Origin: Candidatus Falkowbacteria bacterium
GTDB lineage: Bacteria; Patescibacteriota; Patescibacteriia; UBA11705; JABHMO01
DNA length: 64,000 bases
Assembly (NCBI GenBank): GCA_018674305.1
Contig: JABHAL010000013.1
Span: 8,553 to 72,552, forward strand
Direction: 5' to 3'
The position numbers were made by a program, and so were the translations under genes. The notes below the pieces were generated by a model. That model saw only the letters and a program-made list of their open reading frames with translations. It searched no databases and had not been told where the DNA came from. This document shows, in pieces, positions 29,786-53,755 of the stretch; position 1 is the stretch's first letter, and the number at the start of each line of letters is the position of its first letter.

Positions 29786-30961
29786 TTATCTCCGATTGTT
29801 ATTACAGCGTGGTAGTCCCCAGTTGAACCAAGAACAAGTTTTTTCCTTGGTTGACGTGCAGATACCTTGCTGACACGCCAGTTCCATTTTGGGTTCATAC
29901 CGATTGATATCCACTGAGATTTCAATTAATTCAGCAATTTTTTCAATCGGCATAATCGTTGGAGTCACGTCGGGTGTCGATAGACTGCCATTCAAAATGA
30001 AATGCCCAGATTTGCCAGAGCAATGGAAATACCATCTTCGCATCGGTCCATCGCCTTCCTTCATTAGAGCCTGCCAGTTCGTGACTGTGACAGAGCCAAG
30101 AGCTTTTTGCTCTTCGAGTCGCAGCATCAGAATCAAGCTGTACAATTTCAGGTTGGCCTGTTTCTTGGTGTGAACCATGGTCTGGCCAGTAGATTTCATT
30201 TGCAGAACAATGTCAGCACCTTTGTACCTGCCTGCCTTGGCCATTTCACTGCTGTCAGATTTGATGACCAAAAGCTGTAGCTTTCTGCCTTTACCAGGTC
30301 CTGGGATTTCTCGCATGTCCCCGTTGGATTCCAACTCGGCAACTGCAGCATTGAATTGATCAGATTGCTCTTTTCTTGCAGCGGCGATGTGATCATCCCA
30401 AAGCTTAATGATGTCAGGCCGGTTAGCAAAGTGGCCATGTACAACATTTGACACATTGGCAACCGCGAAGACGTACTTCTTCTTTGGGACACTGAACATT
30501 GACTGGAAAGCAGTAAGTCCCCAGTTAATGTTTCTGATCTGACTGTGTGGCATCACCCGTCGGAGAAGGTTGATGCAAGAGGCCAGTCCGTTTCGAACGT
30601 CAATACCCTCAATATCTGCAGAGTACAGATACTTGAGAATTTCTTTGACGTTTGGCAAATTTGAAACCCCCAATGACTTGGCAACCAGTGTGGCTGCGCA
30701 ATCTTTTTTGTCTCTTGCTTTGCCAGTGCCATTGTCTGGGTGTTCGTCGAATTCGTTTCCCATTGTGCCAACGATAACGACACCACCAGACGTGTGTTCC
30801 GCCACCCACTCGGGAGTAGCATACCTCTCGATGAGAACAGCTGCTGCGATTTCGTCTGCGTGTGGACCAACGTGGGTTAAAAACCACAGAGCCTCTCCTG
30901 CCGCAAAAATAGGGAAACGGACATAGTTACTGTGTTCTTCAAGCCTAGATAGCTGGTTCAA
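29786..30961 (-). CDS. hypothetical protein, compositionally atypical (about 47% GC vs ~35% background)
   Basis: 391 aa. Uninterrupted ORF with a C-terminal Cys-rich tail (CQQGICTSTKEKTCSWFNWGLPRC). GC content is clearly higher than in flanking DNA. It lies adjacent to the tRNA pair. Confidence 0.5.
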   Translation of the reverse strand: MNQLSRLEEHSNYVRFPIFAAGEALWFLTHVGPHADEIAAAVLIERYATPEWVAEHTSGGVVIVGTMGNEFDEHPDNGTGKARDKKDCAATLVAKSLGVSNLPNVKEILKYLYSADIEGIDVRNGLASCINLLRRVMPHSQIRNINWGLTAFQSMFSVPKKKYVFAVANVSNVVHGHFANRPDIIKLWDDHIAAARKEQSDQFNAAVAELESNGDMREIPGPGKGRKLQLLVIKSDSSEMAKAGRYKGADIVLQMKSTGQTMVHTKKQANLKLYSLILMLRLEEQKALGSVTVTNWQALMKEGDGPMRRWYFHCSGKSGHFILNGSLSTPDVTPTIMPIEKIAELIEISVDINRYEPKMELACQQGICTSTKEKTCSWFNWGLPRCNNNRR

Positions 30962-31203
30962 TTTGCACCTCCAATTTTGTTAAATTACAATATAGTAACT
31001 AATCAGTATAACACAGATGAGATATTTTGTCAACACTTATGTAAAATTAGGCAAATATTGCGGTATTTTTATTACTCGACAAAATTGTTAATTTTTGCTA
31101 CTATATACCCAGCTTTACTATAATGTTCGTATAGCTATCGGTAGGGATCGCCACGATCGAAATTGTAAGTATTGAATAAAATATAAATACATCTGGTTCT
31201 TGC

Positions 31204-31279
31204 GCTCGTATAGCTCAGGGGTTAGAGCACCACGCTTATAACGTGGGGGTCGATGGTTCAATCCCATCTACGAGCACCA
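31204..31279 (+). tRNA. tRNA-Ile (anticodon UAU)
   Basis: Manual fold: acceptor gctcgta/tacgagc, D stem gctc/gagc, anticodon stem ccacg/cgtgg with loop cuUAUaa, T arm gatgg-ttcaatc-ccatc, discriminator a and encoded CCA. Confidence 0.75.
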
Positions 31280-31328
31280 GTTGTATTTATATTTTGAGAC
31301 TCGACGCAATTTTATTTACGAGTACTAG

Positions 31329-31405
31329 GGACGCTTAGCTCAGTTGGTTAGAGCGCATCGTTGACGTCGATGAGGTCAGTGGTTCGACTCCACTAGCGTC
31401 CACCA
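31329..31405 (+). tRNA. tRNA-Val (anticodon GAC)
   Basis: Acceptor ggacgct/agcgtcc, D stem gctc/gagc, anticodon stem catcg/cgatg with loop ttGACgt, T arm agtgg-ttcgact-ccact, encoded CCA. Confidence 0.85.
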
Positions 31406-31440
31406 AAAAATCATCAATTTACTTTGGTGTTTTTTTATTA

Positions 31441-31510
31441 CGGTCTATGGTTCGCCCAGCATACGCTGGGCGCCCGGCGTATGCCGGGCGACTCCACTAG
31501 CGTCCACCAT
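31441..31510 (+). repeat. partial copy of tRNA-Val T-arm/acceptor 3' end interrupted by two GC-rich hairpins
   Basis: tggttcg + [cccagc-atac-gctggg][cgcccggc-gtat-gccgggcg] + gactccactagcgtccacca. The last 20 nt are identical to tRNA-Val 31386-31405. A terminator hairpin (gcaccg...cggtgcTTTTT) follows at about 31513-31545. Confidence 0.6.
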
Positions 31511-31591
31511 GAAGCACCGGTATTTAGTTGACGGTGCTTTTTGGTTTAAATGATGTTATAATAGAACCGAATAAAAAATAAAAAGTATATT

Positions 31592-32620
31592 ATGCCGATT
31601 ATTGCTTGGGTTGCAGTTTTAATTTTAAGTTTGTGGGTATTGATTAAATCTGCAGATTATTTCACTGATTATGCGGAACAGTTAGGTAAAATATTACGTT
31701 TACCAAATTTTATTATTGGTGTAGTGATTGTTGCGATAGGAACATCGTTGCCTGAGTTTGCTACTTCTATAATGGGTGTGTATCAAGGGGATGTTGAATT
31801 TTTAAGTGGTAATGTTCTCGGTACAGTAATTGTAAATATTTTATTGGGATTAGGAATTGCAGTTATATTTACAAAACGTAAAACAATTTTTAATTGGGAT
31901 ATAGTTTCTAATGATTTGCCTTTTTTTGCTGCCGCTATTTTCTTAGTTGTAGTTTCTTTGATGGATGGTCATTTCAGTAAGGTTGAAGCTTTATTGTTTT
32001 TGGCTGGGTATATAATTTATATCATATATGCTTACTATATTCAGAAGGAAATAAAGGACACTGCTCAAAAAGAATACAAAAAAGAATTAAGCAAGGAAAT
32101 TAAAAGTGGTTTAGAAGAAATGGAGGAAAAAGACAAAAAAGCAAGTTCAAAGTTTTTTGATAAAATTTTGAAAAAGGAAATTAAAATTGTAGTTATTCTG
32201 TTATTTAGTTTAGGTATTGTAGCTATTGCTTCTCACTTTGTTGTTACATCAGTTCTTAATTTAGCTGTCATATTAGGATTGGGAACTTCTGTTTTGGCAG
32301 CTACAGTAGTAGCGTTGGGAACGTCATTACCGGAAATTTTAGTGGCATTATCAGCTGCGCGAAGAGGTAATTTTGATATGGTGATTGGCGATATTTTAGG
32401 CTCAAATATTTTTGATATTTTTGTTATTTATGGAGTGGCTGGTTTGATAACTCCGCTAACCATAACGCATGAGCTGTTTGTAATTTTGTCTATTTTCCTT
32501 GTGGGTTGTTTTTTCCTTTTGTGGTTGGTTTTAATTGACAAGAAAATCACTAAGTCGGAGGCGTTAATGTTTATAGTTATTTATGTTTTATTTGCAGGTA
32601 AATTATTTAATATTTTTTAG
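31592..32620 (+). CDS. Ca2+/Na+ antiporter, CaCA family (YrbG-like)
   Basis: Two alpha-repeat signature motifs, GTSLPEFATS and GTSLPEILVALSAA. About 10 TM segments with a central hydrophilic loop. Confidence 0.75.
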   Translation: MPIIAWVAVLILSLWVLIKSADYFTDYAEQLGKILRLPNFIIGVVIVAIGTSLPEFATSIMGVYQGDVEFLSGNVLGTVIVNILLGLGIAVIFTKRKTIFNWDIVSNDLPFFAAAIFLVVVSLMDGHFSKVEALLFLAGYIIYIIYAYYIQKEIKDTAQKEYKKELSKEIKSGLEEMEEKDKKASSKFFDKILKKEIKIVVILLFSLGIVAIASHFVVTSVLNLAVILGLGTSVLAATVVALGTSLPEILVALSAARRGNFDMVIGDILGSNIFDIFVIYGVAGLITPLTITHELFVILSIFLVGCFFLLWLVLIDKKITKSEALMFIVIYVLFAGKLFNIF

Positions 32621-32628
32621 TGATAATA

Positions 32629-32663
32629 AAAAAGTGGCCCTGTTATGGGCCACTTTTTGTTTT
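32629..32663. terminator. bidirectional rho-independent terminator between convergent genes
   Basis: agtggccc-tgttat-gggccact is a perfect 8-bp GC-rich stem flanked by an A-run and TTTTGTTTT. Confidence 0.7.
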
Positions 32664-32672
32664 ACAGAAAAT

Positions 32673-33788
32673 TTAATATAAAAATTCTTGAATGTGATTG
32701 ATGATATCCAATGGTTGAGTTGTTAATTCAAAACTGATCAGGTTTTTACTACCCAATGGATTGTATTGATTGAATCTATAGCATAGATCAATTGGTTTTT
32801 CGGCTTTTACTATACAAAACTTTTTACCCTTATCTTCATGGAATAGGGCAGTTATCTCAACAGTTGGAATGCTACTAATTAATTCGTCAATAGCACCTAT
32901 TAAATCTTGCGATCTAGAGTTTGTCTCTTGAAAATCGTCTTGAGTAACTTCAGCCCAGGCGATTTTTTGTTGATCATCAGTTTTTAAATTCATTAATACA
33001 CGACCCCAAAGTTTGAGCGCATTTACAGTTTGTTTTTGATATAAGTTTTGTACAATTGAATCCCTTTGTGCGCCTGCTGCCACTAACTGACTGGCGATAT
33101 TTAAACTTTTTGGGGTTACTGAAGGAATTTTGAAGCTTTTAGTTTTTTCTACCATTCCAGTTAATAAATAAGTAGCAATGGGTTCATCTAGCAGCTTTGA
33201 ATCAACCTGTTCAACAAAGTCGTAGATGATTTCTGAAACAGAAGAGGCTGTTAGATTGATTGCGTTTATATGCCCATAGTGTTCATTGTCTGGAGAGTGA
33301 TCAATGTTGATAATAGGCACTTGGTAAAAAAAATCTGTATTATCAAAGTAGAGCGAACCAAGAGATTCCAGGTCAGGAGTATTTAAGGCAATTATTAAAT
33401 CATATCGGTAATGATTGTCATTGATACGTATATTATTTTTTGAAAAAGTACTTTTTTCTGGATGAACGTGAATATGTAGACGATTATCTTCAATTTGATA
33501 ATCAATTTCTGGATGTTTTTGATTTTCAATTTCCAGGCTGATGATAATTTTTTTTAAATTATTTACTTGTTTTTGAATTGAGGCTGCTTTTGGTAAAAAT
33601 TTATAAGTAGAAGGTAACTCAAATTCAGGAGACACAATTTCTGCGCTTCGGCCCATTTTACTAAGTAATTCAGCTAGAGCTAAGCTTCCAGCAATGACAT
33701 CACCGTTGTGATCCTGACGAAAGGTAATCAATGGATTATTGCTTTTCTGGATCGCTTCATAAAGTTGTTGATGTTGATTTAGCGCCAT
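32673..33788 (-). CDS. DHH-family phosphoesterase-like protein (NrnA-like, motifs partly degenerate)
   Basis: DHNGD resembles DHH motif I and NIDHSPDNEHYG resembles motif III, with DHS in place of DHH. The size and a DHHA1-like C-terminal region fit the family. Confidence 0.4.
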   Translation of the reverse strand: MALNQHQQLYEAIQKSNNPLITFRQDHNGDVIAGSLALAELLSKMGRSAEIVSPEFELPSTYKFLPKAASIQKQVNNLKKIIISLEIENQKHPEIDYQIEDNRLHIHVHPEKSTFSKNNIRINDNHYRYDLIIALNTPDLESLGSLYFDNTDFFYQVPIINIDHSPDNEHYGHINAINLTASSVSEIIYDFVEQVDSKLLDEPIATYLLTGMVEKTKSFKIPSVTPKSLNIASQLVAAGAQRDSIVQNLYQKQTVNALKLWGRVLMNLKTDDQQKIAWAEVTQDDFQETNSRSQDLIGAIDELISSIPTVEITALFHEDKGKKFCIVKAEKPIDLCYRFNQYNPLGSKNLISFELTTQPLDIINHIQEFLY

Positions 33789-34249: not shown

Positions 34250-37200
34250 ATGGACAAAACCTATCAATCAAAAAAATTCGAAGACAAGATTTATAAAAAC
34301 TGGATAAAAAAAGATTTATTCAATCCAGACAAATACACCGGAGAACCATATTCAATAATGATGCCACCACCAAACGTGACCGGTGTTTTGCATTTGGGCC
34401 ATGCTTTGGAAAATTCTTTAATGGACTCAATGGCGCGTTATCAGAGATTGCAAGGCAAAAAAGTTTTACTTTTACCAGGTGTAGATCATGCTGCAGTGGC
34501 AACTCAAGCCAAGGTCGAAAAGATTTTGATTGAACAAGGCATGGAAAATCCTAGGCAAGAACTGGGTAGGGACAAGTTATTAGAAAAAGTTAAAAAATAC
34601 GCGGATGAGTCACGTGACACAATTCTAAAGCAAATTCGAAGGATGGGGACCAGTTGTGATTGGAGTCGTTTTGCTTATACATTTGATAAAGAAAGAAATC
34701 AAGCTGTAAATAAGGTCTTTAAGAAAATGTATGACGACGGCCTGATTTATCGTGGGTACAAAGTAATTAATTGGTCAGTCAAGGGTCAGTCAACTTGTTC
34801 AGATGATGAACTTGAACATAAAGAACGAGAAGCGAAGTTGTATACTTTTAAATATTCAAAAGATTTCCCAATTGAAATCGCGACTACACGACCGGAAACT
34901 AAACTTGGTGATACTGCAGTGGCAGTCAATCCAAAAGATAAACGTTATAAAAAATATATTGGACAAGAGCTTGAAGTTGATTTTTGTGGTAATAAGTTGA
35001 AACTAAAAATAATCTCTGACCCAGAAGTAGATCCAGATTTTGGGACTGGTGCGCTTGGGGTTACGCCGGCTCATAGTCCAGTTGATTTTGAAATGTATGA
35101 AAAGCAAAAAGCACTGAAACAGCCAATTGGTTTAATTCCGGTGATTGGAGCTGACGGAAAAATGACCAAAATGGCTGGCGCAGAGTTTGTGGGATTAAGC
35201 GTAGAAAAAGCTCGGGATAAAGTTGTTAAAAAACTCAAAGCTAACGGTTTATTTATAAAAGAAGAAGATATAATGCAAAACGTGGGAACTTCAGATCGTT
35301 TCGGTGACGTGGTAGAAGCAATTCCAATGACTCAATGGTTTGTTGATGTGAACAAAGAGATCCCAGGTAAGAAAAAAAGTTTAAAACAATTAATGACGCA
35401 GGCCGTTAACAAAGGACATAAAGGAAAAGGTGATCAGAAGATCAATATTGCTCCTCAGCATTTTGAAAAAATATATTTTCAGTGGATTGATAATTTGCGT
35501 GACTGGTGCATTTCTCGGCAGATTTGGTTTGGCCATCGTATCCCTGTTTGGTACAAAGAAGGAAATTCAGTTGTCGGAATTCGCCATGGTGAAGCAGAAA
35601 ATAATGCTCAGGATTATTTAAATGGTGATATTGATAATAATCATTTTGCATTAACAAAAAAGGGTCAAAAACAAGTTGAACAAGCGGCTGAAGAATTAGC
35701 AGATCAAAAATTTGATTTAATTTATACTTCTGATTTTCTACGAACTAAGCAAACTGCAAAAATTTTAGCTGACAAGTTGGGAGTTAAACAGGTGATTGAA
35801 GACCCTCGTTTACGGGAATATGGTATGGGCGAATTTGAAGGTAATGCAGATGGTAGTTTGAGTAGATGCCGTTGTGGTCACTTTGCTGATTGGAAAAATG
35901 CTAATCCTCATGGAGTTGAATCATGGACAAGTGTTTACGGTAGAACTATGGCTGTGTTAGAAGAAATAAAACAAAAACATACTGATAAAAAAGTTTTAAT
36001 TGTCTCTCATGGTGAAATTCTTCGTTATATATCTTCTTATGGCAGAAACTTAGAGCCAGAACAAACCTTTTTACTCCCTTATCCTCAGAACGCTGGAACA
36101 ATCAAGGTGGATTTAAATGAAGAACAAATTAAAGTGAGTGATCAACCAGTCAATGATCCAGGTTGGCATCAAGACCCTGACACTTTGGATACCTGGTTTT
36201 CTTCAGGGTTGTGGACATTCTCAACTTTAGGTTGGCCGGAGAACAATAAGGAAAAAAATAAAGAAAAAAAGAAAATAATAAACGACTTAAAAACTTTTCA
36301 CCCGACCAGCTGGATGCAAATGGGATATGAGCTTTTATTTTTTTGGATGGCTAGAATGATTTTGATGTCCACTTACGTTATGGACGAAATCCCTTTTAAG
36401 AATGTTTACATTCACGGTATGCTCCGTGACGAAAAAGGCCAGAAGTTTTCTAAGTCAGCAGGTAATGGTGTGGATCCAATTGAAGTTATTGATAAATATG
36501 GAGCAGATGCTCTACGTTGGGCACTGTTGATTGGCATTTCCCCTGGTAATGACTCTGCTTTTTACGACGAAAAAGTTGAAAGTGCTCGAAATTTAGTCAA
36601 TAAACTTTGGAATGTGTCGCGTTATATTATAGGAGATATAGGTGATAAAGGAGATAGAGGAGAGAACAAAGAGACCTTAGCTGATGCGTGGATTTTATCA
36701 CGATTTAATCAACTCAAGGAGCGAGTAACAAAATTATTGGATGAATTTAATTTCTCAGCAGCAGGTGAAGAGCTACGAGAGTTTACTTGGAGTGAATTTG
36801 CGGATTGGTACATCGAAATATCAAAAATCAAAGATCAAAATTCTGAATTAAGAAAGAAAATTTTAGTAAAAATTCTCAAAGAGCTCTTGGTTATGTGGCA
36901 CCCGTATGTGCCTTTTGTTACCCAAGCGATATGGCAACAGTTTGATCCCAAAGAAGATATAATGATAACTCAGTGGCCAAAGGTGGATAAAGCTTTAATT
37001 AACAAGCCAAAGGAACAAAAATTTGCTATAATTAAGGAGGTAATTATTAAAATTCGTAATTTACGGTCAGAGTACAAAATAGATCCAGGCAAAAGAATAA
37101 AGGTGTTATTGAAAACTGATAAGCCTTTTGTTGAAGAGAATAAGGATGTTATAATCGTCTTGGCTCGTTTGGAACAACTTGATTTTGTAGACCATAAACC

Positions 37201-37465
37201 GGAGAAAGCAGCCTCAGCCGTTGTCGATGGGGTGGAGGTTTATTTACCGTTAGCAGATATTCTTGATCCTGAAAAGGAAAAACAGCGGTTGGTATCTGAG
37301 AAAAGCAATTTGGAAACTTTTGTTGGTAACCTAGAAAAGAAATTAAGCAACAAACAGTTCATTTCTAATGCTCCAAAACAAGTAGTTGAAATTGAAAAAC
37401 AAAAGTTGAAAACAGCACAGGAAAATTTATCTAAAATACAACAACAAATAATTAACTTGAATTAA
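34250..37465 (+). CDS. valS: valyl-tRNA synthetase with inserted histidine-phosphatase (PGM-family) domain
   Basis: HIGH (PPPNVTGVLHLGHA), KMSKS (KFSKSAGN), the WCISRQIWFGHRIPVWY and DTWFSSGLW motifs, and a C-terminal coiled coil. 1071 aa against ~880 typical. The extra ~180 aa at aa ~443-625 carry RHGE...LTKKGQ...LIYTSDFLRTKQTA...DPRLREYGMG...LIVSHGEIL. Confidence 0.95.
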   Translation: MDKTYQSKKFEDKIYKNWIKKDLFNPDKYTGEPYSIMMPPPNVTGVLHLGHALENSLMDSMARYQRLQGKKVLLLPGVDHAAVATQAKVEKILIEQGMENPRQELGRDKLLEKVKKYADESRDTILKQIRRMGTSCDWSRFAYTFDKERNQAVNKVFKKMYDDGLIYRGYKVINWSVKGQSTCSDDELEHKEREAKLYTFKYSKDFPIEIATTRPETKLGDTAVAVNPKDKRYKKYIGQELEVDFCGNKLKLKIISDPEVDPDFGTGALGVTPAHSPVDFEMYEKQKALKQPIGLIPVIGADGKMTKMAGAEFVGLSVEKARDKVVKKLKANGLFIKEEDIMQNVGTSDRFGDVVEAIPMTQWFVDVNKEIPGKKKSLKQLMTQAVNKGHKGKGDQKINIAPQHFEKIYFQWIDNLRDWCISRQIWFGHRIPVWYKEGNSVVGIRHGEAENNAQDYLNGDIDNNHFALTKKGQKQVEQAAEELADQKFDLIYTSDFLRTKQTAKILADKLGVKQVIEDPRLREYGMGEFEGNADGSLSRCRCGHFADWKNANPHGVESWTSVYGRTMAVLEEIKQKHTDKKVLIVSHGEILRYISSYGRNLEPEQTFLLPYPQNAGTIKVDLNEEQIKVSDQPVNDPGWHQDPDTLDTWFSSGLWTFSTLGWPENNKEKNKEKKKIINDLKTFHPTSWMQMGYELLFFWMARMILMSTYVMDEIPFKNVYIHGMLRDEKGQKFSKSAGNGVDPIEVIDKYGADALRWALLIGISPGNDSAFYDEKVESARNLVNKLWNVSRYIIGDIGDKGDRGENKETLADAWILSRFNQLKERVTKLLDEFNFSAAGEELREFTWSEFADWYIEISKIKDQNSELRKKILVKILKELLVMWHPYVPFVTQAIWQQFDPKEDIMITQWPKVDKALINKPKEQKFAIIKEVIIKIRNLRSEYKIDPGKRIKVLLKTDKPFVEENKDVIIVLARLEQLDFVDHKPEKAASAVVDGVEVYLPLADILDPEKEKQRLVSEKSNLETFVGNLEKKLSNKQFISNAPKQVVEIEKQKLKTAQENLSKIQQQIINLN

Positions 37466-37782: not shown

Positions 37783-40179
37783 ATGTCAGAATTAAACCCC
37801 AACCAGATCATTGGTAAAGAACAATTTGTAGAAGGTGTCGATGATGATGACAGTAAGGTTTCAGCGCCAGAAAAGAAAAAAAAGAAAAAAAAGCGTAGTG
37901 AACCGAAATTGCCAGAAGATTTAAAGCCGTTTGAAAAAGAGGCTGCTATTTTTGCTAAATCAAATCGTCGAATTTTGGCAGATCTTGCCGGTGATAATAC
38001 TTTGAGGTTTAAACCAGGGAAAGGTTTTAAGATTAATTTGGTGTCCGGTGAAGTTACGCTTGGTTTAGAGCAATGGAAGTGGGCACATGAACATGGGTTG
38101 GGACATGAGCAAATTCTTTTCAGTAGTGGTCATGAAATTGCTCATTTTTGGGATTTGAGAGAAGACCCAGAGGGAATGCTTGAAAATTTTGATTATATGG
38201 AAAAAAAGGCCAGAGGCTTGGCCCCACAAGTAGAGGCCATTTTGAAAAAAAAGCATGGCGATCTACCAGAATATTTAACTAAACAAAAAAAAGTTGATCC
38301 TGATGACCCGAGCAAAACAATGAGTGGTTTAGAAATATTTTTATATAAACAACTGCATACATTATATAATTGTTTGGATGATATTTATGTTAATAAGCGA
38401 GTTGGTAGGAAAATGGCTCGTTATTTGATTGAAGGAAAAAGACACAGTCCTCAAGTGATGAAAATGTACAGAGATTTTTTGTTTCCAACTGATAGTAAGA
38501 AACGAGGACAGCCACCGGAGGATGAGCTAACCTCATATTATCTTAAAAAAAGTGCTAAGGCTCAACAGTTGGTTTATCTTTTGTTGCGAAAAAGAATGGT
38601 GCCGGATCAAATGGTAATAGTGGATGATGAAATAAAAAAAATTGTCGAAGATGAGGATATGGAAAAGTTGGTTGATTTTATAACGACACCTAGTCCTGAT
38701 GGTATTCCAGAAAAAGATCAACACAGAGCATCTTGGAGATATAAACAAATTAAAGAATATATTGAACCATTCTATATTGAGCTTTTGATGAAAGATATAG
38801 AAGAATTAGAAATCCCTCCAGAAAAAGAAACACAAATGGGTGACGGCGAAGGTGAAGGCGAAGAAGGTGAGGGTGAAGGTGAAGGTGAAGGTGAAGGTGA
38901 AGGTGAAGGTGAAGGTGAAGGTGAAGGCGAAGAAGGTGAAGGCGAAGAAGGTGAGGGTGAAGGTGAACCAAAGGATGGTGAGCCTAAAGATGGCAAACCA
39001 AATCCTTGGTCACAACTCAATCCTAATAAGCCAATGGACAGAAAAACAGTTGCAGATTATTTAAAAGATAAAAAAGGTAAAGATGAAGAAGAGTCAAAAA
39101 AAGTAGCCGAGCGTGAACGCAAGGCTAGAATGACGCCGGCGGAAAGAGCCAAAGAAGCAATTCGCAGAGCAGATAAAGCTTTTGCTGAAAAGCATGATAT
39201 TCCTGAAGAAAAAGTGCATGATTATCGTCAGATCTCGCATGAAATTGCTAAACATAAGGAGGAATTAGCTCAATTATTTGAAAGTATTTGTAAAAATATA
39301 AGTCGTCAGATTGAATTAGCTTGGGAAAAGTATTACCGTTCTGGTAAATTGGATGTTGCTCGATTGACGAAGAAGTACGGTCCATACTTTGTGGATAAAA
39401 AAATGCTCAGTTTTGTACAGTTTGATCAGCTTGAGACTTATCAGCAGAGAGCGTTTATTGAAAAATTAAGTCTAAAACCGGATGAATTTAGAATTAGATT
39501 TATTGTCGATTGTTCAGGATCTATGACGCTTGGTGATAAAACATATAAAGCCAAAGAAGTGTTAGTTTTGTTTTTGGAATCTTTAGCAACATTTGAAGAC
39601 AAAATTGATCGCATGTTCAAAAAATTCAATATGAAACAACCACCACTTCGAGCCAGAACTCAAATTATTACTTTTGGTGATGAAGGTGGGTCTGAGGAGG
39701 TTAAAAAACTCAGAACGGAAAGAAGAATTAATGTGGAACAAGAGAGGGTAGATCGGTTGCGAGGTTTTGCGGGGATTCATTCAGATGGTGGTAATACCTG
39801 TGATGATGAGGCTTGGCAAAAGGTGAAGGGAACTTTTTGGGACGGAGATTCAGAGAAAATTAAAAAGGGAGAGTTGAAAGATATTGCGATCGAAATTACA
39901 GATGGTGGCTCAACTACAGCTGCTGAAACAAGATCTTTGTTGCACCAAATTTCAAATATGGGAATAGTAACACGTGCGATTGGTGTTTTTGATAAAGACG
40001 AAGAAGGGGATGATTATAGGTCCTCTTGGCGAAGTTCTGATTTAGATACTTTTGATGAAGTTTGGGGCAAAGACGGTGAAGTTATTCATGATGTTAGTGA
40101 ATTGGTTGAAGCAGTTTATAAATTACTCAAAGAACAGATTCAGGATATTAACTTCCAAATGGGAGAAGCTGAAGAATAA
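37783..40179 (+). CDS. metallopeptidase-like (HExxH) + von Willebrand factor A domain protein (DUF2201-type), partner of MoxR-like ATPase
   Basis: HEIAH at aa ~117 in an N-terminal domain. MIDAS motif DCSGSM at aa ~576 followed by a vWA-like region. A central (GE)n low-complexity linker. 798 aa. Confidence 0.7.
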   Translation: MSELNPNQIIGKEQFVEGVDDDDSKVSAPEKKKKKKKRSEPKLPEDLKPFEKEAAIFAKSNRRILADLAGDNTLRFKPGKGFKINLVSGEVTLGLEQWKWAHEHGLGHEQILFSSGHEIAHFWDLREDPEGMLENFDYMEKKARGLAPQVEAILKKKHGDLPEYLTKQKKVDPDDPSKTMSGLEIFLYKQLHTLYNCLDDIYVNKRVGRKMARYLIEGKRHSPQVMKMYRDFLFPTDSKKRGQPPEDELTSYYLKKSAKAQQLVYLLLRKRMVPDQMVIVDDEIKKIVEDEDMEKLVDFITTPSPDGIPEKDQHRASWRYKQIKEYIEPFYIELLMKDIEELEIPPEKETQMGDGEGEGEEGEGEGEGEGEGEGEGEGEGEGEEGEGEEGEGEGEPKDGEPKDGKPNPWSQLNPNKPMDRKTVADYLKDKKGKDEEESKKVAERERKARMTPAERAKEAIRRADKAFAEKHDIPEEKVHDYRQISHEIAKHKEELAQLFESICKNISRQIELAWEKYYRSGKLDVARLTKKYGPYFVDKKMLSFVQFDQLETYQQRAFIEKLSLKPDEFRIRFIVDCSGSMTLGDKTYKAKEVLVLFLESLATFEDKIDRMFKKFNMKQPPLRARTQIITFGDEGGSEEVKKLRTERRINVEQERVDRLRGFAGIHSDGGNTCDDEAWQKVKGTFWDGDSEKIKKGELKDIAIEITDGGSTTAAETRSLLHQISNMGIVTRAIGVFDKDEEGDDYRSSWRSSDLDTFDEVWGKDGEVIHDVSELVEAVYKLLKEQIQDINFQMGEAEE
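38842..38966 (+). repeat. hexanucleotide (GGTGAA)n microsatellite encoding (Gly-Glu)n
   Basis: About 20 near-perfect tandem copies of ggtgaa, ggcgaa or gaagaa, in frame within the vWA protein. Confidence 0.85.
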
Positions 40180-40342: not shown

Positions 40343-42928
40343 ATGGTTCTAAATTTTTTCAAATCAAAGTTCGAGAAGAACTACACTCCAGTAGAGGAAG
40401 TGGATGCTGTTGAGTTACAAGAGTGGAAAGCTAATGATGAGCGTGCAGAAAGATTATTCGAACAATATCAAGAGTATTTTACTTTGCTTTCTGATGTTCG
40501 GCCGGATTTAACTTCAATAGAAGAAACCGTTCAAACTGAGAAAGGTCCTAAGAAGGTTAAACGTCGATTGCAAGTTACGGAAATGCTGGAAACCGATCGT
40601 GAGCATTGGCGGAAGTTTATCAATACAAAAAAAATCAAGCAGGATTTAGCTGAAGAATTGTCAGACTCTACAGACTCAAAAATGGTAATCGAAACGGAGG
40701 TTGAGGCAGTTTTGGATTCAATTGCAGAAATAGTTGAATTAAGAAAGCAAGTTGTGGGGGATGAGGAAATTGGAATTAGTATTCCAAACGAAGTGCAGGA
40801 TGCTTATAATTATAGAGTTCAGGAAGGAATCACAGCCAAAAAGAAAATTAAAGATTATAATAAAAGATTAGAACAATTGTTGGTAGCTTCTCGCGGTTCG
40901 TCAGCACGTAAACGTAGACCTGCTCAAGTCAGAGCAGCTAGAAATGAATATAAGCAATTAAAGGAGGAGTTTAGCGAATATATTGAAAATGATCCAGATG
41001 CTTTTATGGTTATGGCCTTCGATAGAATGTTAAATATGAAGAAATCATTTGATGAGGGTGGTAGAATTGTTGAGACTCGCTATGTGAAAATTTTAATGGA
41101 GCAAGTTTACGAAAAGTTAGAAGGTGGTCGCCCAGTATTTTTGCATGGTGAATTGGGAAGTGGAAAGTCAGAAGTAGCTAAACATTTATCCAGAAAAATT
41201 TTGTCTAGACATTATTTACATCGTTGGGAAACGGGAGATGAGGACTTGAACTTGGCTCCACACCCGAAACCAATAAAACCAGCAGAAATAAACTATGAAG
41301 ATTATGTAAAAGAAGGTATGAGTGAGGAGGAGGTAAGTGAAAATACTCGAGAATTCAACAAAGCCAGGAAAGAGAGACTTGGAAAACTGGAAGAGTGGCG
41401 TAAAAAGCTTAAAGATTGGCACAAAGAACGAAAAGAACAAGCAGAGCCTTATTTAATATCTGGTCATCGAGGATTAGAAGCAGAACAGTTTATCGGAGGA
41501 ATGAAGATTGAGCGTATGAAGAGTATGACACCAGAAGAGAAAACTAAACTGATGATGGAAAAATTGGCGGAGTATAGGTCTGAACACGAGAAAGACGGCG
41601 TAGCAAAGGAAAAATTAGACCAGATGATGGGGTTATATGAGGAAGATCTAAAAAAGTTTTACGATAACCCAGTAGAAGTTTGTGGTTATCTGGGTATGTT
41701 TTATCGCGCGATGCAAGAAGGCCGACCAATTATTATTGATGAGATGAATGCCATTCCTCATCACGTGTTGATTTTATTAAATGATCTTTTGACTAGAGTT
41801 CCTGGTGATAATGTTAAACCTATGGTTGAGGGAGTTTCTGAGTTTACTGTAAAAAAAGGATTTTATGTTATTGCTACAGGTAACTGGGATCCAGAATCAG
41901 CTGATGTTTATGTAGGTCGGCAAAAGATAGATGCTGCCTATTTATCACGTTTTGAATTAGAAAAATACGATTATTTACCTAATGCCGTTGACTTCAGTCT
42001 TCTGGCAGAAACTTCAACGCTGGAACAGGAAGATGAACATAAGCTAAGGCAAGAAAATGAATTATTTCACATGTTGATTATCAGAATGTTAGACAATAAC
42101 GGCTCATTGCAGATCCCAGAGGGAGGAGATGATCAACTTTATAGATTGGCAGTTGTGGCTAGAAATATTCAAAGCGCTTTTTCTGGTTTTGATGTGCCAA
42201 GTGAATATTTTCCAGATGCCACCGGTAATGTTGAACGTGGCCCAAAAGATGTATTAAAGGAAAATGTTTTGTCATTACGACACTTGATCCCAATTATAGA
42301 ACGTTGGAAAAGTGAAGGTTATAGTAAACCAATTGATGTTTATCTTTTTAATTATTACTTGGAAAGATCTAAGGCGAGAGAAGAAGAAATGCTTTATCTT
42401 TATGAAAAACTGCAAACGCAGGGAGATTTTTTCTCTGTTAGTGAAGGCTGGCCTCCAGCAACAGGCGAGATTGATCCGGCAACTGGAGCTAATGATGATG
42501 ATCAAAAGTTTCAACAACAGGCCAAAAATAGAATTTTAAAATTTGATACAGCTAAAATGTTGCATGATGTTGATTATTTGAGTGGACATAAATCGGGTGA
42601 AGCTCTTATTGATGATGATATGCCGGAAGTAGCGACTATGTCGGCGGTAGAGGTAATCAAGATGCTGTTTGGGCGTATCCCGGAGAGAACCGAGATTAGA
42701 TTAAAGAAAGTCAACTTAGGTGAAAATGGTGAGCCTGAAGGTGGAGTAAAAGCAGAATTAGACCCAGTCACAGAAAGAGAAATCCGTAAACTTTCTGAAA
42801 GAAATGAAGAACTTGACGATAGAGTTGAGCATCATGTAGATGAGGGAGGTAAAGATATGCAGGGTGCTCAGGATGCGTTAAAACATGGTCACAGGAAATC
42901 CGAAGAATCTGTAGAAGGCGAACGCTAA
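40343..42928 (+). CDS. MoxR-like AAA+ ATPase (large, with insertions)
   Basis: Walker A HGELGSGKSEVAKHL, Walker B IIIDEMNAIPHHVL and sensor-1-like YVIATGNWDP. 861 aa with charged coiled-coil N- and C-terminal regions. Confidence 0.7.
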   Translation: MVLNFFKSKFEKNYTPVEEVDAVELQEWKANDERAERLFEQYQEYFTLLSDVRPDLTSIEETVQTEKGPKKVKRRLQVTEMLETDREHWRKFINTKKIKQDLAEELSDSTDSKMVIETEVEAVLDSIAEIVELRKQVVGDEEIGISIPNEVQDAYNYRVQEGITAKKKIKDYNKRLEQLLVASRGSSARKRRPAQVRAARNEYKQLKEEFSEYIENDPDAFMVMAFDRMLNMKKSFDEGGRIVETRYVKILMEQVYEKLEGGRPVFLHGELGSGKSEVAKHLSRKILSRHYLHRWETGDEDLNLAPHPKPIKPAEINYEDYVKEGMSEEEVSENTREFNKARKERLGKLEEWRKKLKDWHKERKEQAEPYLISGHRGLEAEQFIGGMKIERMKSMTPEEKTKLMMEKLAEYRSEHEKDGVAKEKLDQMMGLYEEDLKKFYDNPVEVCGYLGMFYRAMQEGRPIIIDEMNAIPHHVLILLNDLLTRVPGDNVKPMVEGVSEFTVKKGFYVIATGNWDPESADVYVGRQKIDAAYLSRFELEKYDYLPNAVDFSLLAETSTLEQEDEHKLRQENELFHMLIIRMLDNNGSLQIPEGGDDQLYRLAVVARNIQSAFSGFDVPSEYFPDATGNVERGPKDVLKENVLSLRHLIPIIERWKSEGYSKPIDVYLFNYYLERSKAREEEMLYLYEKLQTQGDFFSVSEGWPPATGEIDPATGANDDDQKFQQQAKNRILKFDTAKMLHDVDYLSGHKSGEALIDDDMPEVATMSAVEVIKMLFGRIPERTEIRLKKVNLGENGEPEGGVKAELDPVTEREIRKLSERNEELDDRVEHHVDEGGKDMQGAQDALKHGHRKSEESVEGER

Positions 42929-44001: not shown

Positions 44002-45186
44002 ATGTCAGTCAACACAGATCCACAAAAAATCGAACAGTTATTAACTCGCGGAGTGGAAAATGTTTACCCAAATAAAGAATTTTTGGAAGAACTTTTGAAA
44101 TCCGGGAAAAAACTAAAACTATATTTAGGAATTGATCCTACCGGTCCAAGTTTGCATTTGGGGCACGCTATTAGTTTAATGAAACTCAGACAATTTCAGG
44201 AACTTGGTCACACGGTTATTATGTTGATTGGTAGTTTTACTGCCATGATCGGTGATCCAACTGATAAATTAGCCGTTCGTCAGCCATTGACCAGAAAACA
44301 AGTTTTAGCCAATTGCAAGAACTATGAAAAACAAGCGGCCAGTATTTTGGATATGAAAAAAACTGAAGTTAAATACAATAACAAGTGGTTAGATAAATTG
44401 AACTTCAAAGATATCGTTGAAATTGCAGGGAAATTCACAGTTCAGCAAATGCTAGAGCGTGATATGTTTGAGAATCGAATGAAAGAAGGTAAACCGATCG
44501 GATTGCATGAGTTTTTGTATCCTTTAATGCAGGGCTATGATTGTGTGGCCATGAAAGTTGATGGTGAAATTGGTGGCAATGATCAAACCTTTAATATGTT
44601 GGCCGGACGGACGTTAATGAAATCCATGAGTAATAAAGAAAAGTTTGTAGTGACTAATAAATTGTTAGCTGATACTTCTGGTAAGAAAATGGGTAAGTCC
44701 GAGGGTAATATGATTACTTTGGATGATGCTGCTGTAGATAAGTTTGGTAAAGTAATGGCCTGGACAGATGATATGATTGTGAATGGCTTTGAACTTTGCA
44801 CTTTTGAACCAGCAAGTAAGGTTAGCGAAGTTGAAGCGCGATTAAATAAAGGTGAAAATCCACGTGACCTTAAATTAGAATTAGCCAAAGCTATTGTTAG
44901 AATTTATCATGGTGAAGCAGAAGCCGAAAAAGCAGTTGATAACTTTATAAAAACTTTTTCACAAAAGCAAAACCCGGATGACATTGAAGAGTTTGATTTA
45001 AGTGGTAAAACAATTATTGAAGCGTTAGTTGAGGCAAGGGTAGTACAATCAAATTCAGAAGCTAGAAGAAATATTCAACAAGGTGGTGTCAAAATCAACG
45101 ATCAAGTTGTTGAAAAAATAGATACAAAAGTTAAATCTGGTGATGTTATCCAAAAAGGTAAACGCCATTTTATAAAAATCAAATAA
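44002..45186 (+). CDS. tyrS: tyrosyl-tRNA synthetase (with C-terminal S4 domain)
   Basis: HIGH (PTGPSLHLGHA), KMSKS (KMGKSEGN) and a C-terminal S4-like ARRNIQQGGVKIND. Confidence 0.9.
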   Translation: MSVNTDPQKIEQLLTRGVENVYPNKEFLEELLKSGKKLKLYLGIDPTGPSLHLGHAISLMKLRQFQELGHTVIMLIGSFTAMIGDPTDKLAVRQPLTRKQVLANCKNYEKQAASILDMKKTEVKYNNKWLDKLNFKDIVEIAGKFTVQQMLERDMFENRMKEGKPIGLHEFLYPLMQGYDCVAMKVDGEIGGNDQTFNMLAGRTLMKSMSNKEKFVVTNKLLADTSGKKMGKSEGNMITLDDAAVDKFGKVMAWTDDMIVNGFELCTFEPASKVSEVEARLNKGENPRDLKLELAKAIVRIYHGEAEAEKAVDNFIKTFSQKQNPDDIEEFDLSGKTIIEALVEARVVQSNSEARRNIQQGGVKINDQVVEKIDTKVKSGDVIQKGKRHFIKIK

Positions 45187-52057: not shown

Positions 52058-53755
52058 ATGAACAAAATAAAACAACAATTAGCGGATTACTTAAGTAAAA
52101 AATTAAAGATTAAAGTTGAACCAAGTCAATTTACTGAGCCGCCAAATCGTGAAATGGGCGACCTCGCATTACCATGTTTTGATTTGGCGGCACAATTGAA
52201 ACTTGATCCTCAAGCGACCTGCCAGGAGATCCTTAAACGCGCGCAGGCCGACATGCTGGAGATTATTGAAGAAGTAAAAGCGGCTGGGCCTTATCTTAAT
52301 TTTGTAATTAAAAGCGCATATCTAAACAAGCTGGTTCTGGAAAGTAAATTTGAACCCGAAAAGAAAGTTACAGAAAAAGTAATGATTGAGTATTCTCAGC
52401 CAAACACTCATAAAGAATTTCACGTTGGCCATTCTCGAAACGCAATTCTTGGTGCAGCTTTGGTAAAGATTCATCGTTTCCTAAATAAAAAACCTAAAAA
52501 TGTAATTGCTGCTAACTATATTGGCGACACTGGAGTGCATGTAGCTAAAGTATTGTGGTACATAACCAAGTTTAATTCTAATATTGATATACCCAAGGGT
52601 GTAACTAACTCAGAATACCTTGGCCAAGCTTATACTGAAGCTGTGAAAAAGCTGGAAGAAGATGAAACCCTAAATCAGGAAGTTAGCGATATTCACAAAG
52701 AGCTGGAAGCCGGCGATAAAGATTTAGTTTCCTTGTGGAGATCAACCAAAGAGTGGAGCATGATAGGTTTTTATGATGTATACAATTTACTTAATGTTGA
52801 ATTTGATGAATGGTTTTGGGAAAGTGAAGAAGAAGCCGTTGGAAAAAAGATTGTTCAGAATATTCTTGATGAAAAAACAATTCCACAAATTAGAAAAAGT
52901 GATGGCGCCGTGATTGCTGATTTAAAGGAGTTCAAGCTGGAAGTCTTAGTTTTGATCAAGTCTGATGGAAACGCGCTTTACGGCGCAAAGGATATTCCAC
53001 TTGGTATGAAAAAGTTTGATAAGTTCAAAGTTAAAAAATCTATCTATGTGGTTGATAATCGACAGTCATTGTATATAAAACAAGTTTTTAAGCTTTTGGA
53101 TTTACTGGGATATGAGGATCGTGAGAAAATTCACGTGGCTTATGATTTTGTAACATTGCCAGACGGTGCGATGGCTTCAAGAAAAGGGAACGTGGTAACT
53201 TTTTCCAAGTTTTATAATGAGATCTGGAAGAAAACAATTGAAGAAACCAAAGAACGTCATGATGAGTGGCCGAGGGATAGGATTGAAGCAGTGGCCAGTA
53301 AAATTGCGTTGGCAGCTATTAAGTTTTTTATGTTGAAATATGATAATAATTCGGTAATAGTTTTTGATGTTAAGAAGGCCTTAGCATTTGAAGGTGATTC
53401 TGGTCCGTATTTACTTTATACTTTAGCTAGGATTAATTCTATTTTACGAAAAACCAAACTTAAAGGTAAGGTTGATTATTCTTTGCTAACTGATAAAACT
53501 GAAAAAGCTTTGATTTTACATATGAGTAATTTTAATGAAATTGTAGTCAAAGTTGCTCAAGATAACGTGCCAATGCGACTCTGCACCTACTTAATTGATC
53601 TAACTCAACTGTATAATAATTTTTATCATCAGTGCCCAGTTTTGAAATCTGAGGAAAACTTACGTTTAGCACGTTTGACTTTATGCTCAAAAGTGAAATT
53701 TTTGCTTGAAAAGGGACTAAATTTATTGAATATTGACCCTGTTGATGAAATGTAG
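52058..53755 (+). CDS. argS: arginyl-tRNA synthetase
   Basis: N-terminal Arg_tRNA_synt_N-like region, class I HIGH-like EFHVGHSRNAILG, and a C-terminal DALR anticodon-binding-like region. 565 aa. Confidence 0.9.
   Translation: MNKIKQQLADYLSKKLKIKVEPSQFTEPPNREMGDLALPCFDLAAQLKLDPQATCQEILKRAQADMLEIIEEVKAAGPYLNFVIKSAYLNKLVLESKFEPEKKVTEKVMIEYSQPNTHKEFHVGHSRNAILGAALVKIHRFLNKKPKNVIAANYIGDTGVHVAKVLWYITKFNSNIDIPKGVTNSEYLGQAYTEAVKKLEEDETLNQEVSDIHKELEAGDKDLVSLWRSTKEWSMIGFYDVYNLLNVEFDEWFWESEEEAVGKKIVQNILDEKTIPQIRKSDGAVIADLKEFKLEVLVLIKSDGNALYGAKDIPLGMKKFDKFKVKKSIYVVDNRQSLYIKQVFKLLDLLGYEDREKIHVAYDFVTLPDGAMASRKGNVVTFSKFYNEIWKKTIEETKERHDEWPRDRIEAVASKIALAAIKFFMLKYDNNSVIVFDVKKALAFEGDSGPYLLYTLARINSILRKTKLKGKVDYSLLTDKTEKALILHMSNFNEIVVKVAQDNVPMRLCTYLIDLTQLYNNFYHQCPVLKSEENLRLARLTLCSKVKFLLEKGLNLLNIDPVDEM

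Follow-up and report, generated by a model that had tools for sequence, protein, structure and literature searches.

Aminoacyl-tRNA synthetases (aaRSs) are among the most conserved of enzymes, and the catalysis known to have been added to their core is essentially limited to editing. Among enzymes that work on tRNA ends, the Escherichia coli CCA-adding enzyme is fused to an HD-domain phosphohydrolase. RNase H/acid phosphatase Rv2228c (NF005567) carries a CobC-type domain, and the NCBIfam exception-family model NF040702 ('ileS_w_GNAT') describes isoleucyl-tRNA synthetases (IleRSs) with an inserted N-acetyltransferase, a precedent for an extra enzymatic domain in a class Ia synthetase. Structural variation at the third connective peptide (CP3), which bridges CP2 and the latter half of the Rossmann fold, is likewise established, its topology and zinc content being species-dependent in class Ia synthetases and IleRS (PMC7191050). 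Here we analyse a 64,000-nt window (contig JABHAL010000013.1 of assembly GCA_018674305.1, positions 8,553 to 72,552, forward strand) from Candidatus Falkowbacteria, in which the valyl-tRNA synthetase (ValRS) gene valS encodes a protein with a complete histidine phosphatase domain nested in CP3. A first-pass annotation of the window, made from the sequence alone, had proposed this architecture, had regarded an accessory activity of this kind as undescribed and had assigned the DNA to the Candidate Phyla Radiation (CPR), to which Falkowbacteria indeed belong. Both parts of the protein come from known families, and extra synthetase domains and CP3 variability are known as well, but we found no description of a histidine phosphatase in or beside ValRS or IleRS in the searchable literature.

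Family matches and motifs mark the gene as the organism's valine-tRNA ligase, in which neither the scaffold nor any motif for synthesis or editing is disrupted. The protein exceeds the cut-offs of two NCBIfam valS equivalog models (NF004349, 953.5 bits against 704; TIGR00422, 885 bits against 612), and Pfam resolves a split tRNA-synt_1 domain, Anticodon_1 and Val_tRNA-synt_C, i.e. the C-terminal coiled-coil arm. Of the KMSKS-type motif, K732, S734 and K735 are invariant among 43 aligned ValRSs and F733 and S736 nearly so, and the CP1 editing-domain motifs TTRPET and GTGALGVTPAHS were both found. Comparison with the Thermus thermophilus enzyme (1GAX), which shares with the window protein the HIGH/KMSKS Rossmann, CP1 editing, anticodon-binding and coiled-coil architecture of canonical bacterial ValRS, gave E = 2e-181 with phmmer, and a full-length AF2 model (predicted local distance difference test score, pLDDT, 82; predicted template modelling score, pTM, 0.68) matched 1GAX_A with a Foldseek E of 5e-57 and a target-normalised TM score of 0.87. 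There is no second valS within the 64-kb window.

The two enzymes differ at CP3. The CP3 hairpin exits the Rossmann fold after WCISRQ..IPVWY and re-enters it at DTWFSS; in 1GAX this stretch is a zinc knuckle of ~25 residues (WY-C..C to C..C-...DTWFSS), whereas the window ValRS has no cysteines there and bears an enzyme domain of ~190 residues at the tip. The spacer from WCISRQ to LDTWFSS measures 221 aa, as compared to typically 34 aa in ~100 insert-free Patescibacteria ValRSs, i.e. ~187 residues extra, in agreement with the in-frame insertion that the first-pass annotation had placed where relatives have a short zinc-knuckle hairpin. Alignment to ValRS references further indicated that the extra segment is not a conserved part of the connective peptide: ValRS profiles are interrupted from aa ~440-454 until ~633 (the valS equivalog breaks at aa ~454, profile position 430 of 860), and on 1GAX coordinates the break falls at residues ~426-440, inside the zinc knuckle, with one Cys pair on either side. 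While the zinc-knuckle cysteines are lost in the window protein, both Cys pairs (WYC..C ... C.CGS) flank the insert in orthologues P0004-P0009, and the domain thus sits at the hairpin tip. In the full-length model, the insert is linked through a β-hairpin that extends the ValRS strand VWYK. Other variants at this structural location, such as the zinc-binding CP3 of T. thermophilus IleRS and lineage insertions like the leucine-specific domain of LeuRS, are familiar, but the CP3 variants known so far, at ~35-65 residues, are small and purely structural, whereas the insert described here is an independent enzyme domain.

Profile searches identified the insert as a complete branch-1 histidine phosphatase domain. 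PF00300 (His_Phos_1) matches aa 444-629 (nt 35579-36136) at 134-136 bits (gathering cut-off 21.7; E = 6.4e-39), spanning profile positions 4-188 of 194, and the segment 35570-36125, which the first-pass annotation had singled out as the phosphatase, returns E = 1.1e-39 when run alone. The motifs it had quoted are all in place (RHGE at 445-448, FLRTKQTA at 496-503, RLREYGMG at 520-527, VSHGE at 585-589), and in alignments the branch-1 catalytic set is complete: R445-H446-G447, N452, R498, E523, R565 and H587-G588. R445, H446, R498 and R565 are kept in 15 of 15 ValRS-embedded and 50 of 50 IleRS-embedded copies as well as in 15-16 of 16 free-standing ones (the sixteenth is truncated in the alignment; RH is conserved in the other 15), so that all four are 100% conserved across 65 embedded copies despite an overall identity of ~35%. 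The position of E523 is occupied by E in all 15 ValRS copies and in 46 of the 50 IleRS copies, the remaining four having D. Conservation of H587-G588 is not independent evidence, because HG[DE] belonged to the pattern used in the genome scan described below.

The insert is the most confident part of the full-length AF2 model (10-residue blocks at 78-96), and when modelled alone (pLDDT 92.4) it adopts the α/β fold of the superfamily, with PspA (4IJ5) as its top structural neighbour. A profile built from 14 ValRS inserts and run against solved structures found PhoE as the best match (E = 9e-29), while the phosphoglycerate mutases (PGMs) of the dPGM type in the PDB aligned over the N-terminal half only (profile positions 2-108). 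Curated functional models were missed throughout, namely those for dPGM (TIGR01258 pgm_1, 41-45 bits against 81.7, aligned over residues 2-91 only), archaeal dPGM (NF038349 dPGM_arch, 96-100 against 225), the α-ribazole phosphatase CobC (TIGR03162, 101.5-106.5 against 162.9), PspA-type phosphoserine phosphatase (NF045917, 71-75 against 350), the phosphohistidine phosphatase SixA (TIGR00249, 43 against 74.5) and GpmB. Taken together, these matches make the insert a predicted generic PhoE-like phosphomonoesterase and, by these tests, not a mutase. The described enzymes of this kind, i.e. PhoE (YhfR) of Geobacillus stearothermophilus (1EBB/1H2E), PspA, CobC and GpgP, are free-standing and act on small molecules, whereas the insert is tied to IleRS and ValRS. 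Of the fused precedents, the CobC-type domain of Rv2228c matches the insert at 72-76 bits, short of the cut-off of 326, and NF040702, which concerns a GNAT and not a His_Phos domain, scores the window protein at 148 bits against 1999. The CCA-adding enzyme and Rv2228c are moreover terminal fusions with other partners (the former of the HD fold), whereas the phosphatase in ValRS is nested.

That the architecture is an artefact or a selfish element without host function, be it an assembly chimera, a miscalled gene fusion, an intein or another mobile insertion, has in our estimate next to no probability. Its composition and occurrence do offer some support: GC content at third codon positions (GC3) is 0.18 in the insert (35567-36145) as compared to 0.32 ± 0.04 in sliding windows over the rest of valS (minimum 0.245), i.e. 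below every backbone window, and inserts are distributed patchily on the ValRS tree. However, the codon usage of the insert is as similar to that of the backbone (0.89) as backbone windows are (0.896 ± 0.016), and we read the low GC3 as relaxed constraint, not recent foreign origin. The reading frame is continuous, and the insert is not an assembly chimera, since the exact protein recurs on 16 contigs from several sources (NCBI, JGI, ENA, Logan), named Candidatus Falkowbacteria. Dozens of diverged orthologues share the same insert junctions, and the model shows the insert, at high confidence, as an integral domain attached through the β-hairpin. An intein, which the first-pass annotation had already discounted, finds no match among Hint, intein or endonuclease families in Pfam; the junctions read ...KEGNSVVGIRHGE... 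and ...IKVSDQPVNDPGW..., with neither the initial Cys, Ser or Thr nor the terminal His-Asn of splice junctions, and the domain itself folds as His_Phos. Chimera, fusion miscall and intein are thereby effectively refuted. A survey of CPR orthologues, as the first-pass annotation had suggested, showed ~20 of the 120 closest ValRSs, from Falkow-, Kuenen- and Uhrbacteria and at 47-66% identity, to carry PF00300 as well. Relative to these orthologues, the insert (32-52% identity) has diverged more than the backbone (54-71%), with the catalytic residues all kept.

The first-pass annotation had presented the phosphatase as an oddity of one ValRS. While the insertion itself held up, its singularity did not: the domain is part of an association with IleRS and ValRS that runs through Patescibacteria. 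An exhaustive profile search of 1.84 billion representatives returned 194 hits at E ≤ 1e-30, and among the best 150, which we inspected, the ~60 proteins of ≥500 aa are without exception class Ia synthetases, either ValRS (few) or IleRS (most; 713-893 bits to TIGR00392, cut-off 621, for the six tested). In the IleRS carriers, the domain lies at the break of the ileS profile, i.e. the CP3-equivalent position; insert-free IleRSs have a 62-64-aa zinc knuckle as their CP3, and the phosphatase sits inside it. Hits of ~400 aa were tandem His_Phos proteins or aaRS fragments, and a word-indexed homologue search with the insert alone recovered only three free proteins. A genome scan with one genome per GTDB species, its loci ranked by similarity to the ValRS insert, yielded a best 80 that come nearly all from metagenome-assembled genomes of Patescibacteria and span many candidate phyla. 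These comprise 14 ValRSs and 50 IleRSs with the phosphatase and 16 free-standing phosphatase genes (~185-230 aa), ValRS and IleRS being the sole partners in phosphatase-bearing open reading frames (ORFs). Several CPR-type contigs in this set (L012, L013, L016, L017, L020, L025 and others) are labelled 'uncultured Gammaproteobacteria', 'Candidatus Saccharibacteria', 'Bdellovibrionales' or 'Binatia', names that look like automated mislabels.

Within ValRS the phosphatase occupies two sites. Site A, in CP3, is used in the window protein, P0002-9, P0037 and P0082, whereas in P0065, P0072 and P0112 a domain of the same subfamily lies at site B, the loop after DTWFSS...STLGWP; among species-representative genomes, nine species have it at site A and five at site B. 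The site-B loop of the window ValRS is of low pLDDT at 665-670, and in other lineages it is taken up by a phosphatase or an ASCH-like domain. The free genes mostly have ileS immediately after them, argS immediately before them, or both; a few are on short contigs with neither neighbour visible. In the six free representatives examined, argS always comes first, and in four of them ileS comes next, the phosphatase gene and ileS overlapping or being 1-13 nt apart. In a rough neighbour-joining tree of the divergent domain sequences, the ValRS copies form one clade with the site-B copies as its basal branches, while IleRS-embedded and free copies are intermixed, suggesting several fusion or fission events. 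Thus, a single phosphatase family is found in four placements in Patescibacteria, i.e. ValRS CP3, a second ValRS loop, IleRS CP3 and a separate gene.

Individual loci depart from this scheme. Two tandem histidine phosphatase domains occupy the CP3 of IleRSs P0127, P0129 and P0135, and the ValRS fragment P0124 has three to four in tandem. Extra unexplained length is present in P0260 (1561 aa) and in a 1765-aa IleRS-like ORF of the Gracilibacteria locus L078. Some phosphatase-bearing IleRSs appear as two ORFs (L043, 2-931 and 935-3076) or as proteins of ~750 aa (P0175, P0180, P0215, P0267) that begin just before the WCISRQ-equivalent block; these may be split genes, genes of lineages with an alternative (UGA) code, or truncated calls. 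In one lineage (L009, 3511-3888; L010, 774-1151), the free phosphatase gene after argS is followed by a response-regulator gene in place of ileS. In NCBI, the window protein is named only 'class I tRNA ligase family protein'. Under that name, or that of a plain valyl- or isoleucyl-tRNA synthetase, the embedded enzyme would be missed by domain-level pathway surveys.

What these placements suggest, by the gene-fusion and gene-neighbour principle, is a functional interaction, since the domain is nested at three positions, lies as a free gene beside ileS and has only Ile and Val synthetases as hosts. The reading we favour, albeit tentatively and at somewhat less than even confidence, is that the insert is an active phosphatase coupled with the synthetase on a phosphomonoester relevant to charging. 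Catalysis would proceed via a phospho-His446 intermediate with E523 as the proton donor. Apart from its editing activity, ValRS houses in its catalytic domain an unrelated, second hydrolase whose catalytic residues are intact, and the four arrangements of its family across a large part of the CPR predict a real functional partnership. Several points weigh against this coupled activity. The closest solved relatives of the insert are small-molecule enzymes, with phosphoserine, 3-phosphoglycerate or sugar phosphates, α-ribazole phosphate and glucosyl-3-phosphoglycerate as their substrates. To our knowledge, no member of the histidine phosphatase superfamily acts on RNA ends. The genome scan ranked loci on their resemblance to the ValRS insert and required HG[DE], which limits its sample, and some of the argS/ileS adjacency reflects conserved gene order, not a series of independent events. 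Finally, four to five ValRS lineages have divergent His_Phos inserts with altered motifs: the nucleophile His is replaced by Tyr in P0017 (RYG), and P0010 and P0015 read RHR and RHY, P0031/P0102 VHG/AHKG. As the domain is kept with its motifs degenerate, catalysis would seem dispensable in those lineages.

The nature of the closest relatives also speaks for the strongest rival, a serious one although we think it unlikely, in which a housekeeping small-molecule phosphatase or mutase (PGM, phosphoserine or sugar-phosphate phosphatase) is welded to the essential, constitutively expressed synthetase genes of tiny genomes and rides along with no mechanistic link to aminoacylation. Several shallow Parcubacteria clades are reported to lack PGM, perhaps since their versions of it have diverged beyond recognition (Jaffe et al. 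2020, PMC7304191); the passenger might be this missing mutase. In insert-free Magasanikbacteria-like relatives, an enolase-iPGM-iPGM array lies directly upstream of the DHH-valS pair (L092, 3021-7811; L093, 1-8074), whereas the window (29786-33788) and most phosphatase-bearing loci are without enolase or iPGM genes at that position. No genome appears twice among the best 80 loci, compatible with one copy per genome. On the other hand, the equivalog cut-offs for dPGM, dPGM_arch, PspA and CobC were all missed and dPGMs align to the N-terminal half alone. L025, by tblastn with the enolase and iPGM of insert-free relatives the only phosphatase-bearing locus among those retaining the sequence upstream of DHH to have an iPGM there (3-1217), combines it with a ValRS-embedded (site-B) phosphatase. 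A search for iPGM homologues was filled by Magasanikbacteria proteins (68-91% identity) and is uninformative on Falkowbacteria. Moreover, one would expect a pure hitch-hiker to be fused at a terminus or to lie next door; nesting at three core positions and repeated switching between free and embedded states are hard to explain without selection for physical proximity. Among the ~60 large carriers, the only hosts are Ile and Val synthetases. Were the substrate a metabolite, the domain would supply a step missing from CPR central metabolism and illustrate how extreme genome reduction nests enzymes in essential genes.

The decayed copies bear on a further rival, namely that the module is non-catalytic or regulatory, either replacing the CP3 knuckle or sensing a phospho-metabolite or phospho-histidine to tune Val/Ile charging, with any hydrolysis incidental. 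Besides the degenerate motifs kept in several ValRS lineages, the tolerance of unrelated domains at the same loops and the varying topology and zinc content of CP3 among IleRSs (PMC7191050) would agree with such a role. Two ValRSs (P0074, P0114; aa ~450-640) have at site A a serine hydrolase (PF06821/PF00561) with its GxSxG motif intact (GHSIG and GRSLG, respectively), and a ~125-aa ASCH/DUF3850-like domain with the motif 'WELKIYG..IF..IK.G.K..E.R...' occurs alone in P0118 (site A) and P0097 (site B) and immediately behind the phosphatase in P0082, P0031 and P0102. Its assignment is marginal (DUF3850 of the PUA clan, E = 0.004; PH0355/PF0455, E = 0.006-0.01), and the domain is putatively RNA-binding. 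Both the foreign domains and the loss of catalytic residues in a minority of ValRS-embedded copies go beyond the first-pass annotation. On a neighbour-joining tree of ValRS backbones, the variant inserts are scattered among insert-free sisters, arguing that insertions have come and gone repeatedly at both ValRS loops, which act as hot-spots. In Uhrbacteria, 8 kb downstream of a phosphatase-bearing valS, a free PF06821 gene (20854-21417 in L091) precedes a NUDIX gene. Still, the invariance of R445, H446, R498 and R565 in the 65 embedded copies, the retention of the same residues by free-standing orthologues and the tandem duplications, which point to activity or dosage and not to scaffolding, leave a purely regulatory module improbable.

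Even less probable, in our view, is a protein phosphatase akin to SixA, PGAM5 or Sts-1 whose target would be the synthetase or a translation factor on which a kinase toxin or signalling kinase has acted. The score to the SixA model falls well below its cut-off, the nearest neighbours of the insert are small-molecule enzymes, and no conserved kinase was present in the neighbourhoods examined.

If the favoured reading of an active, synthetase-coupled phosphatase is taken one step further, our leading guess for its substrate would be the tRNA itself. ToxSAS toxins pyrophosphorylate the CCA end of tRNA and thereby block aminoacylation (PMC11559606; 10.1101/2021.04.30.441581). The phosphatase would remove a blocking 2'/3'-(pyro)phosphate from the acceptor end, such as 3'-end nucleases leave behind or toxSAS-type toxins install, and the unblocked tRNA would then be aminoacylated by the tethered synthetase. 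In the full form of this proposal, which we regard as doubtful, the CP3-tethered enzyme strips tRNA 3'-(pyro)phosphates just before Ile/Val charging, serving acceptor-end repair or as an anti-toxin, with the serine hydrolase or the ASCH-like domain as its equivalent in sister lineages. An RNA substrate would also suit the PUA-like domain that adjoins the phosphatase in some proteins. The first-pass annotation had put forward the 3'-phosphate or 2',3'-cyclic phosphate of tRNA ends, alarmone-type nucleotides and aminoacyl-adenylate as candidate substrates, the last of which is chemically unlikely for a phospho-histidine phosphomonoesterase. A CCA-enzyme preprint contained nothing relevant to a loss of the HD domain from the Patescibacteria CCA enzyme. 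Were tRNA the substrate, tRNA quality control or repair would gain a new step and the histidine phosphatases a new class of substrate; should the tRNA-end proposal in particular be true, the domain would be the first RNA-end-directed histidine phosphatase and a new cis-acting aaRS accessory activity besides editing.

Table 1 Features of the valS locus in window coordinates.
Feature	Position (nt)	Strand	Basis or remark
valS, encoding a 1071-aa valine-tRNA ligase with the phosphatase nested in it	34250..37465	+	Single unbroken ORF; NCBIfam, Pfam, AF2
HIGH motif HLGH, aa 48-51, synthetic site	34391..34402	+	Sequence reading; invariant in 43 aligned ValRSs
WCISRQ, aa 419-424, last conserved ValRS block before CP3, upstream anchor of insertion	35504..35521	+	Alignment
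Inserted histidine phosphatase domain, PhoE-like His_Phos branch 1, aa 440-632	35567..36145	+	Replaces tip of CP3/zinc-knuckle hairpin
RHG motif: R445, H446 (predicted phospho-acceptor nucleophile), G447	35582..35590	+	Alignments
R498, phosphate-binding arginine in S..R..TA	35741..35743	+	Alignments; 100% conserved
E523, predicted general acid/base in RL.E.G.G	35816..35818	+	Alignments
H587-G588, second catalytic histidine (SHGE)	36008..36013	+	Alignments
DTWFSS, aa 647-652, resumption of ValRS catalytic domain, downstream anchor	36188..36205	+	Alignment
Site B, loop after STLGWP	36236..36298	+	Short Lys/Glu-rich expansion only; 30-aa spacer versus 19
KMSKS motif KFSKS, aa 732-736	36443..36457	+	Sequence reading and alignment
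DHH-family gene, conserved divergent neighbour of valS in the clade	32673..33788	-	Synteny marker only; weak Pfam DHH; tblastn synteny in 14 ValRS loci
tyrS, in conserved valS-tyrS-argS cluster	44002..45186	+	Same gene order in L091, L092, L093
argS	52058..53755	+	Adjoins phosphatase-bearing gene or free phosphatase in most related loci

The surroundings of valS in the window depart from the otherwise conserved valS-tyrS-argS order by a pair of genes. Directly downstream of valS, 37783-40179 encodes a 798-aa protein with a long acidic (GE)n repeat and a weak C-terminal vWA domain; it is followed at 40343-42928 by an 861-aa AAA protein of the MoxR/dynein-like type. An 82-aa ORF on the minus strand (38772-39020) is merely the reverse strand of the GE repeat.

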